In this document: piece by piece, positions 20,600 to 22,546 of the stretch
Layout: each line of letters opens with the position of its first letter
Numbering within the stretch: the stretch's first letter is position 1
DNA from: Acidimicrobiales bacterium
GTDB taxonomy: Bacteria; Actinomycetota; Acidimicrobiia; Acidimicrobiales; Aldehydirespiratoraceae
Reading direction: 5' to 3'
DNA length: 64,000 nt
Assembly: GCA_965116865.1 (NCBI GenBank)
Contig: OZ220727.1
Coordinates: 3,038,307 to 3,102,306 of the forward strand
The notes under the pieces: generated by a model
What the model saw: the letters and a program-made list of their open reading frames with translations, nothing else
What the model was told of the DNA's origin: nothing
Database searches by the model: none
Position numbers and translations under genes: made by a program

Positions 20600-22546
20600 G
20601 TGACGGTGGGTGTGGAGCCGTGTCGGGTGGATCTGTTCAAGGGTTCGCATTTCGTGGGGGAGCGGCTGGCGGCGGATTCGATTTTTTCGGTGTTGGCGCG
20701 TGAGGGGCGGCGGTTGTTTCCCGACGGGATGTTCGATGATCTCTTTAGTTCGCGGGGGCGGCGCAGTGTGCCGCCGCGGGTGGTTGCTGTGGTGATGGTG
20801 CTGCAGCGCTGGTTCGGGTTGTCTGACCGTGAGGCGGTGGCCGCGTTCGAGTTCGACGCGCGTTGGCGTTATGCGTGCGGGTGCCTCGACGTGGACGGCG
20901 GCGGGTTCGACCACACGGTGCTGGTGGGGATGCGGGCGCGGCTCGCGGCGTCGCAGCGGCCGCGGCGGATCTTCGAAGCGGTGCTGGGCGCGGCCCGCGA
21001 GGCGGGGGCGTTGTCTCGGCGGCGGGTGCTGGACTCGGTGCCGGTCTATGACGCGGTCGCGACCCAAGACACTGTCACGATGCTGCACCGCGCCATCGGC
21101 GCGGTGCTCGCAGCCGGCGGGGGCGACGCCGGCGCGGGCTTGCGTGGCGACTATCGGCGCGGCAGCAGGCCGGTGTGCGACTGGGACGACCCCGGCGAGC
21201 GCTCGGAGTTGGTGGACGCGCTGGGCGCGGACGCCGCGGCGGTGCTCGCCGGGTTGGAGGGCCGCGAGCTCAGCGGGGCTCTCAGCGAGGCTGCGGAGTT
21301 GTTGGCCGCGGTCTGCGGGCAGGACCTCTGCGAGGACCCCGACGGGCGGTTCATGATCGCTCGGCGCGTCGCCGCGGACCGGGTCATCTCCACGGTGGAC
21401 CCCGACGCCCGCCACGGCCACAAATCCACCGCACGGCGCTTCGACGGCTACAAGGGCCACGCCGCGGTGGACCCCGACTCCGAACTCGTCACCGACACCG
21501 CGGTCACCCCCGCCAACACCGCCGACGCCCAACCCGCCCCCCAACTCATACACGACCTCCTCAACACCGCCGACACCGACACCGACACCGACACCGCCGA
21601 CACCGACACCGACGACACCGACACCGACACCGCCGACACCGCCGACACCGACACCGCCGACACCGACACCGCCGACACCGACACCGACACCGCCGACACC
21701 GCCGACACCGACACCGCCGACACCAACACCGACACCGCCGACACCGCCGACACCGACACCGACACCGCCGACACCGCCGACACCGACACCGACACCGACG
21801 ACACCGACACCGACACCGACACCGACACCGCCGACACCGCCGACACCGCCGACACCGCCGACACCGACACCGCCGACACCGACACCGCCGACACCGCCGA
21901 CACCGACACCGACACCGCCGACACCGCCGACACCGCTGACGCCGACACCGCCGACGTCGGCGGTGTGGTCGAGGAGTTCGAGGGCCGGCCGACGGTCTAT
22001 GGCGACAGCGCGTATGGCAGCGGAGAGTTCCAAGGGCTGCTCGAGCGCAGCCGCATAAACTCGAGGTGCCGCACCCAGCCGGCGCGCGCTCCGGGGGGCC
22101 GCTTCGCCAAGGACCGCTTCGACGTCGATCTGCCCAACGGCACAGTCACCTGCCCCGCGGGGGTCTGCGTCGCTGTCCGCTTCGGCCGCGACGGCTCGGG
22201 CGCGGCCCGCTTCGGGCCGGCGTGCGCGAGCTGCGAACTGCGCGACCGCTGCACCAGCGCAGCCGGCGGAAGGACTGTGCGCGTCGGACCCGACGAGGCC
22301 GTGCTCGCCGCGGCCCGCGAACGCCAACAAGACCCACAATGGCGCCGCGACTACCGCGCCGTGCGCCCCAAAGTCGAACGCAAGCTCGCGCACCTCGTGC
22401 GCCGCAAACACGGCGGCCGCCACGCCCGGGTGCGCGGCCGGCCCAAAGTCGACGCCGACTTCAACCTGCTCGCCGCAGCCGCCAACATCGCGCGCCTCGG
22501 CATGCTCGGACTGCGCTCCACACCAACAGGATGGACCCTCGACTGA
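20600..22546 (+). CDS. IS1182-family DDE transposase (648 aa) with internal (T/A)D low-complexity insertion
   Basis: GTG start with GGGGAGG 9 nt upstream. N-terminal DUF772-type region (LFSSRGRRSVPPRVVAVVMVLQRWFGLSDREAVAAFEFDARWRYACG). DDE region (VYGDSAYGSGEF). C-terminal KVERKLAHLVRRKHGGRHARVRGRPKVDADFNLLAAAANIARL. Confidence 0.85.
   Translation: MTVGVEPCRVDLFKGSHFVGERLAADSIFSVLAREGRRLFPDGMFDDLFSSRGRRSVPPRVVAVVMVLQRWFGLSDREAVAAFEFDARWRYACGCLDVDGGGFDHTVLVGMRARLAASQRPRRIFEAVLGAAREAGALSRRRVLDSVPVYDAVATQDTVTMLHRAIGAVLAAGGGDAGAGLRGDYRRGSRPVCDWDDPGERSELVDALGADAAAVLAGLEGRELSGALSEAAELLAAVCGQDLCEDPDGRFMIARRVAADRVISTVDPDARHGHKSTARRFDGYKGHAAVDPDSELVTDTAVTPANTADAQPAPQLIHDLLNTADTDTDTDTADTDTDDTDTDTADTADTDTADTDTADTDTDTADTADTDTADTNTDTADTADTDTDTADTADTDTDTDDTDTDTDTDTADTADTADTADTDTADTDTADTADTDTDTADTADTADADTADVGGVVEEFEGRPTVYGDSAYGSGEFQGLLERSRINSRCRTQPARAPGGRFAKDRFDVDLPNGTVTCPAGVCVAVRFGRDGSGAARFGPACASCELRDRCTSAAGGRTVRVGPDEAVLAAARERQQDPQWRRDYRAVRPKVERKLAHLVRRKHGGRHARVRGRPKVDADFNLLAAAANIARLGMLGLRSTPTGWTLD
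21566..21955 (+). repeat. In-frame microsatellite built from GACACC and GCC units inside the IS1182 transposase gene
   Basis: About 390 bp of gacacc/gccgacacc units encoding about 130 aa of TDTDTADTADTD... between the segments ...PAPQLIHDLLN and ...GGVVEEFEGRPTVYGDSAY. Confidence 0.95.

Follow-up and report, generated by a model that had tools for sequence, protein, structure and literature searches.

An in-frame acidic repeat of variable length in the catalytic domain of an IS1182-family transposase from Acidimicrobiales

Introduction

The usual view of insertion sequence (IS) transposases is that they are compact enzymes, with identical copies throughout a genome. Elements of the IS1182 family encode theirs in a single open reading frame (ORF), with the domains DUF772, DDE_Tnp_1 and DDE_Tnp_1_6 and a catalytic DDE triad, and have short inverted repeats and a short palindromic target. 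An element sharing all of these features lies in a 64,000-nucleotide stretch of contig OZ220727.1 from an Acidimicrobiales bacterium (assembly GCA_965116865.1, positions 3,038,307 to 3,102,306; this whole stretch is called the window hereafter), and its transposase carries a long Thr/Ala/Asp repeat within the catalytic domain. The α1–β4 loop of the closest named relative found, an ISMgi3-family transposase of the Mycolicibacterium gilvum plasmid pMSPYR101 (∼45% identity), consists of about 7 residues (GESAPVT), as opposed to 130 residues of pure repeat here. Across the wider IS1182 family the median length of this loop is 8.5 residues, and the window IS is ∼390 bp longer on account of the tract.

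Repeats with some of these properties are known from other settings. The 'tuning knob' idea concerns coding variable-number tandem repeats (VNTRs), that is, in-frame microsatellites with a unit length that is a multiple of three. The tract resembles them in that its units are in phase with the codons, its codon purity is high and its length changes rapidly among gene copies that are otherwise near-identical. However, coding VNTRs usually reside in proteins of the surface or of host interaction, whereas here the repeat occupies the catalytic domain of a transposase and each copy of a multicopy element has its own allele. Phase-variable contingency loci, in which simple-sequence repeats turn genes on and off, likewise have a slippage-prone repeat within a gene, but the 6-nt and 9-nt units of the tract keep the frame, and all seven alleles compared here and all eight in a related closed chromosome, OZ244832.1, are in frame. 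An on/off switch of this kind is ruled out by the frame-keeping units, frameshifts being rare (homologues P0069 and P0107). Finally, acidic disordered autoinhibitory regions have been described in the C-terminal domain of Hfq (PMC6561178) and the negatively charged region of CTCF (PMC11667065). As presented in the abstracts of these papers, such regions are, like the tract, long, disordered and strongly negative segments of a basic nucleic-acid-binding protein; the tract differs from them in being an internal loop instead of a tail and in its hypervariable length, and the likeness here lies in charge (−53) and predicted disorder.

In the open-access literature searched, no account of repeat tracts in IS1182 transposases was found. 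Each component (the IS family, coding microsatellites, acidic disordered regions) is known already; their combination, in which nearly every copy of a bacterial transposase has a separate allele of a clade-wide hypervariable poly-acidic repeat in its catalytic domain, was not found described in that literature.

Results

A codon-pure repeat within the transposase gene

The tract had been noticed in a sequence-only reading of the window, and translation and codon parsing of the ORF 20600..22546 (+) reproduced its limits exactly: positions 21566-21955 form 130 in-frame codons, corresponding to amino acids 323-452 of the 648-residue transposase. These codons comprise 53 GAC, 51 ACC, 24 GCC, one AAC and one GCT, so that 128 of 130 are ACC, GAC or GCC. 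They are arranged as 26 TD and 24 TAD units with six odd residues besides, and Tandem Repeats Finder reports an array at 21564-21955 with periods of 6, 9 and 15 and a top score of 456. Outside the tract the ORF has mixed codons, ACC accounting for 10 of 20 Thr codons and GCC for 27 of 73 Ala codons. The purity of the tract against this background points to amplification at the DNA level and rules out chance. As computed from the sequence, the tract shifts the net charge of the transposase from +6.6 to −46 and its isoelectric point from 8.7 to 4.5. A conserved NTAD motif lies 16 codons upstream, encoded by the same 12 nt as the first unit of the tract, and is a likely seed or recombination partner of the repeat.

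A scan of positions 20000-24500 with Rfam gave nothing near gathering scores, so that an RNA element within the tract or on its opposite strand is unsupported. Two overlapping ORFs, one antisense of 741 aa (20501..22726) and one in the +2 frame with an 'RH' product (21175..21939), were rejected as GC-rich shadow ORFs, the family matches falling in the + frame only.

Tract length differs between near-identical copies

The six full-length alleles of the nearest cluster at 90% identity are all on record for a single 3.32-Mb contig. Together with the window they give seven alleles, belonging to one community or genome, with tracts of 68, 73, 76, 82, 90, 96 and 130 aa, and at most 7 of 518 residues differ elsewhere. 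At the DNA level, the copy at locus L026 differs from the window IS (390-nt tract) at 10 of 1,784 nt outside the tract and has a tract of 246 nt; that at L029 differs at 5 of 1,784 nt and has a tract of 288 nt. The suggestion that length changes fast is therefore borne out, with a difference of 0.3–0.6% outside tracts of 246, 288 and 390 nt, and with a range of 75–456 nt in the related closed genome. That genome, the chromosome OZ244832.1 of Candidatus Aldehydirespirator sp. (Acidimicrobiales), holds eight copies with tracts of 25, 39 (twice), 51, 70 (twice), 76 and 152 aa and flanks at least 98% identical. Two of them (L002 and L009) differ at 6 of 1,550 nt, yet their tracts differ by 303 nt. 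All tract lengths determined in DNA (75, 117, 153, 210, 228, 246, 288, 390 and 456 nt) are multiples of three. As judged from these alignments, the tract is an in-frame coding VNTR or microsatellite with a copy number that differs between near-identical alleles.

Rearrangements were also seen around and within the repeat. In homologues P0003, P0052 and P0054 the segment between the upstream NTAD motif and the tract is duplicated, the expected product that unequal recombination between repeat units would leave. P0069 and P0107 are frameshifted within the tract, giving a PT/PR-rich reading, and one of them is back in frame before the VYGDSAY motif. By these sequences, the tract can occasionally inactivate a copy, yet it is no frame-switching device.

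An acidic repeat loop is typical of this branch of the family

With its tract deleted, the protein was searched against 5.8 billion proteins; of the 8,000 matches returned, the best 120 (61–98% identity, 484–709 aa) were examined. A low-complexity repeat of T, D, A, E, G and S was present between the LI.DLL helix and VYGDSAY in all 120. In these homologues the units are lineage-specific (TADTAEDSG, TADTAEDAD, TDSGDSTG, HTDAD, DNP and others) and the loops span about 10–120 aa. These best homologues were then combined with 50%-identity representatives from a search of 1.8 billion proteins, and in this survey the loop was longer the closer the kinship to the window protein: the median was 8.5 aa (with a median net charge of 0) at ≤40% identity, 12 aa at 40–50%, ∼37 aa at 50–70%, 50 aa at 70–85% and 96 aa above 85%. 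Among loops of at least 25 aa, 111 of 117 were net negative, with on average 26% D+E and 2.3% K+R, compared with 14.3% K+R in the rest of the window protein.

Short acidic loops, such as DRDDPGGDDDEA, are found in Rhodococcus-like relatives at ∼65% identity. Unnamed copies on Rhodococcus plasmids have 53–55% identity, the 55% copy having a semi-repetitive acidic loop of ∼33 aa. In Candidatus Aldehydirespirator genomes, a more distant transposase lineage (38–51% identity) has T/D/H/G tracts of 51–119 aa in the same loop, again differing among copies. Sequence comparison thus presents the acidic repeat loop as characteristic of one branch of the IS1182 family, in Actinomycetota (here Acidimicrobiales). 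An expansion of this length had at first been called unusual; comparable acidic repeats are in fact normal throughout the subclade, and the description fits only in relation to the wider IS1182 family (∼8 aa).

Repeats of similar composition occur elsewhere. At locus L023 (JAUHWK010000077.1), unrelated predicted proteins with signal- or lipoprotein-like N-termini have long D/T/S/G repeats, for example DTSDSGDTSDSGDSGD, so that acidic Thr/Ser-Asp microsatellites are also found outside transposases.

The tract occupies the loop before the second catalytic aspartate

An alignment of the window transposase with 42 homologues (A1) and a structural model place the tract within the RNase-H-like core in the α1–β4 loop, 17 residues ahead of D469, the second catalytic Asp. 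In the window protein a helix (312-322) is followed by the tract, by the conserved segment VGGVVEEFEGRPT (453-465), by a strand (465-468) and by D469. The short-loop homologue P0018, modelled with AlphaFold on a deep alignment, gave a mean predicted local distance difference test score (pLDDT) of 92.8 and a predicted template modelling score of 0.91. Its model has a strand β1 (141-150) bearing the first Asp, a helical insertion, strands at 283-294 and 299-307, helix α1 (316-329), a loop (330-345) with a dip in confidence, and strand β4 (346-349) with D350 directly after it. The earlier proposal of a tolerated in-frame spacer, with the ...LIHDLL helix on one side and the ...VYGDSAY catalytic strand on the other, is supported.

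AlphaFold on the window protein itself, with 43 close homologues, gave a poor model (mean pLDDT 52.5) that was used for disorder of the tract only; residues 323-457 had a pLDDT of ∼30 and were without secondary structure. When the P0018 model was compared with the PDB using Foldseek, the top matches were piggyBac, Tn5 and retroviral integrases, all weak (E of 7 × 10−3 or worse), which fits a DDE/RNase-H-like enzyme, as modelled, of a family without a solved structure.

Tract-bearing elements have moved and their genes are under purifying selection

In one ENA assembly, at least two further contigs encode a protein identical to the 648-aa transposase; L025 represents the locus of the window and L024 a different locus. 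At L024 a 2,174-bp element, 100% identical to the window IS including the tract, is CTAG-bounded within different flanks, next to a helicase/type ISP restriction gene. Likewise, two copies in OZ244832.1 (L004 and L005) are identical including the tract and lie at two sites. Copies identical to this extent at different sites indicate that the element moved with the tract in place; by these identities, elements with tracts of 70 and 130 aa have therefore moved recently, and the tract can survive transposition unchanged. For the window IS compared with the OZ244832.1 copies, the ratio of nonsynonymous to synonymous divergence (dN/dS) was 0.29–0.31 at a dS of ∼0.39, indicating purifying selection in lineages all of which bear tracts.

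A truncated 3′ fragment of the IS (529 nt, 99.2% identical) was also observed at positions 1686-2214 of locus L010, on OZ220743.1 from an Acidimicrobiales metagenome-assembled genome. The DNA upstream of this fragment is 85% similar to window positions 23949-24901, and this genome is the closest in the species-representative collection.

The element, its termini and its neighbours

The element is assigned to the IS1182 family on the combined sequence evidence of a curated model, domain architecture, a DDE triad, inverted repeats and a target-site duplication (Table 1). The NCBIfam IS1182 model NF033551 matches at 272.5 bits (cutoff 270) in two stretches parted by the tract, and the score is near the cutoff because the tract splits the match. 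In Pfam, DUF772 (residues 53-128), DDE_Tnp_1 (268-323) and DDE_Tnp_1_6 (518-633) all score above gathering thresholds. These matches, the invariant catalytic residues and the perfect terminal repeats confirm the earlier impression that the transposase and its terminal repeats are intact around the tract. CTAG was found on both sides of every IS copy examined, at more than nine different sites; since CTAG is palindromic, the length of the target duplication is left at 2–4 bp.

Table 1. Positions of the IS1182-family element, its functional parts and associated elements (window coordinates unless a locus is given)
Feature	Position	Strand	Details
Complete IS1182-family IS	20511..22684	+	2,174 bp with CTAG at each end; 2,166 bp if CTAG is the duplicated target
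Left terminal inverted repeat, CTAGGTGGCTGGTG	20511..20524	+	14-nt perfect repeat
Transposase ORF	20600..22546	+	648 aa; GTG start, GGAGG 7 nt upstream; ORF list, Pfam, NCBIfam
Codon of D145, first catalytic Asp (LDS motif, strand β1)	21032..21034	+	Invariant in alignment A1; strand 141-150 in P0018 model
Conserved NTAD motif (AAC ACC GCC GAC)	21515..21526	+	16 codons upstream of tract; sequence
Tract, (ACC GAC) and (ACC GCC GAC) units	21566..21955	+	Net charge about −53
Conserved loop segment VGGVVEEFEGRPT, aa 453-465	21956..21994	+	Joins tract to strand β4; kept in all close homologues
Codon of D469, second catalytic Asp (VYGDSAY)	22004..22006	+	Invariant in A1; equals D350 of P0018, directly after strand 346-349
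Codon of E593, catalytic Glu (PKVERK)	22376..22378	+	Invariant in A1
Right terminal inverted repeat, CACCAGCCACCTAG	22671..22684	+	14-nt perfect repeat
MITE-like element, GGAGAGTGTTGATTATG...CATTACTCAACAGTCTCC	22685-22783		99 bp; own inverted repeats; CTAG both sides; between IS1182 and IS630 elements
IS630-family element	22784-23950		Inverted repeats CTAGTGTCCTGAGTC / GACTCGGGACACTAG, 15 nt, 93% complementary
Third copy of 13-nt IS terminus, TAGGTGGCTGGTG	63978..63990	+	Starts an element running off the window end (64000)
∼103-bp non-autonomous element, GGTGGCTGGTG...CACCAGCCACC	L004 1206-1307, 3431-3532; L005 3431-3532; L006 2298-2399		Exact termini of the IS

Insertion recreates CTAG at both ends, and elements can therefore stack head to tail. 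To the right of the IS lie a 99-bp element resembling a miniature inverted-repeat transposable element (MITE) and then an IS630-family element. A homologue of the MITE-like element adjoins the IS copy at L004 in OZ244832.1. The IS630-family element has a 366-aa ORF (22850..23950), the product of which, on L025, has matches to Pfam DDE_3 and helix-turn-helix models on record. At L026 the same IS630 inverted repeat lies directly against the right end of a further IS1182 copy, an arrangement which indicates that CTAG-targeting elements nest repeatedly. In OZ244832.1, ∼103-bp elements sit head to tail against full IS copies at regenerated CTAG sites; from their termini, they are MITEs derived from or mobilized by the IS family of the window. 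The 99-bp and ∼103-bp types have an internal core in common, TCACAAAACC(C/G)CAGGTCAG.

The sequence-only reading placed a second copy of the IS at 63979. The 13-nt terminus is indeed repeated there, but a copy is not established, as the sequence diverges from both ends of the window IS beyond ∼16 nt. No match to this terminus was obtained in the retrieved loci. From its sequence, it could mark the start of either a ∼100-bp MITE that shares these termini or a related IS. Directly before it, at 63937-63977, a 13-nt unit (TCATCACTCTCCT-like) occurs three times in tandem.

Two giant ORFs with internal repeats are also present in the window. One (3642-19958, +), of up to 5,438 aa as listed and probably starting further in at a signal-peptide-like MSETLPSRLL..., has ∼30 near-identical tandem domains of ∼113 aa (period 339–345 nt, copies 90–93% identical), a poly-Pro linker and three C-terminal repeats resembling S-layer homology domains; it ends ∼550 nt upstream of the IS and its product is probably a cell-surface protein. 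The other (25523-36250, −) has 3,575 aa and an internal period of ∼357 nt, as seen from regularly spaced pattern matches.

Discussion

Our results suggest that the tract is probably a tolerated, hypervariable, disordered poly-acidic surface loop of an IS1182-family transposase. According to this explanation, an ancestral α1–β4 loop, short and acidic in this branch, would have given rise to a codon-phased microsatellite of 6-nt (ACC-GAC) and 9-nt (ACC-GCC-GAC) units, in which slippage at replication or unequal recombination would gain and lose whole units and so change the length quickly and always in frame. A loop without fixed structure, joining β4 at its N-terminal end and away from the catalytic Asp, may leave the fold and the DDE triad unaffected, so that any length would be tolerated. 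The element would keep transposing into CTAG sites while the tract is continually turned over, and any effect on activity, for example through ∼53 extra negative charges damping DNA binding electrostatically, would be modulatory.

Several points weigh against this explanation. Slippage is deduced from the structure of the repeat: copies at the same locus with another tract length were sought and none was retrieved (P0122 is at another locus), nor were read-level length variants. The model of the window protein is poor, and an unaffected fold therefore leans on the homologue P0018. The identical second copy might owe its movement to a shorter allele of the same cell acting in trans. In addition, the scarcity of Arg and Lys in the loops, compared with the rest of the protein, hints at selection, and a purely neutral reading leaves the acidic composition unexplained unless an acidic ancestral loop was inherited. 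Such inheritance from a short loop that was already acidic would account for the composition equally well as a selected role.

A selected role would make the tract a regulatory module, a flexible DNA-mimicking or metal-sequestering tether that restrains DNA binding or catalysis from a position beside the catalytic core, with its length as a tuning knob giving each copy a level of activity. The best argument for such a role is that independent expansions, built from different DNA units, all use D/E with T/S/G/A (sometimes H) and are nearly devoid of K and R, 111 of 117 long loops being negative; the tract also reverses the net charge of the protein, the feature has been kept over a dS of ∼0.4 under purifying selection, and by analogy acidic disordered regions restrain nucleic-acid binding in Hfq (PMC6561178) and CTCF (PMC11667065), according to the abstracts of these sources. 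Nevertheless, short-loop relatives of the subclade are already acidic, such that the composition may come from the seed, copies with tracts of 25–152 aa all look intact without sign of an optimum, and codon purity reflects rapid turnover and not conservation. We consequently regard a regulatory module as unlikely. A specific version, in which selection has made the poly-acidic Thr/Asp loop a brake of tunable length (mimicking DNA as a disordered chain or sequestering Mg2+ by the DDE site, maybe modulated by Thr phosphorylation) and slippage resets length and with it the transposition rate of each copy, would be rather improbable; if true, it would constitute a built-in, heritable and rapidly evolving rheostat for a mobile element. 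Slow translation of the 128 near-uniform codons, favouring action in cis, was also considered.

The sequence-only reading had alternatively offered the expansion as a first step of inactivation; on such a view, a runaway microsatellite has crippled this transposase copy or will do so. The window loop is among the longest and most negatively charged in the sample, and the frameshifts of P0069 and P0107 demonstrate that tracts can host inactivating mutations. This idea is contradicted, however, by the intact ORF, DDE triad and inverted repeats, by intact ORFs in all alleles, by the identical 2,174-bp copy at the second site, by the 152-aa tract within an intact 672-aa ORF of another genome, by the dN/dS of ∼0.3 and by the fact that tract-bearing alleles are the rule in the subclade; we consider decay very improbable. 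That the tract length is an artefact of assembly or sequencing in a low-coverage long-read metagenome is scarcely credible: the tract-bearing contigs are labelled 3x and 5x and repeats are error-prone, but two further contigs, of which one represents a different genomic site, have the 390-nt tract base for base, hundreds of independent assemblies (closed chromosomes included) contain comparable tracts, and the tract lengths examined are all in frame.

A tolerated, hypervariable loop has consequences for how these elements are viewed. The α1–β4 loop of IS1182/IS5-type transposases would be a permissive insertion site, and the catalytic domain of this branch accepts 10–150 residues of pure acidic repeat, with its own length allele in nearly every copy. 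If the tract is merely neutral, it represents a tidy case of microsatellite turnover in a multicopy gene, of modest general interest. For annotation, long tract-bearing ORFs of this kind are not pseudogenes. The tract may also serve as a natural barcode, identical tracts marking recent transposition as against older copies, and a natural length series is at hand for asking whether disordered acidic segments tune transposition.

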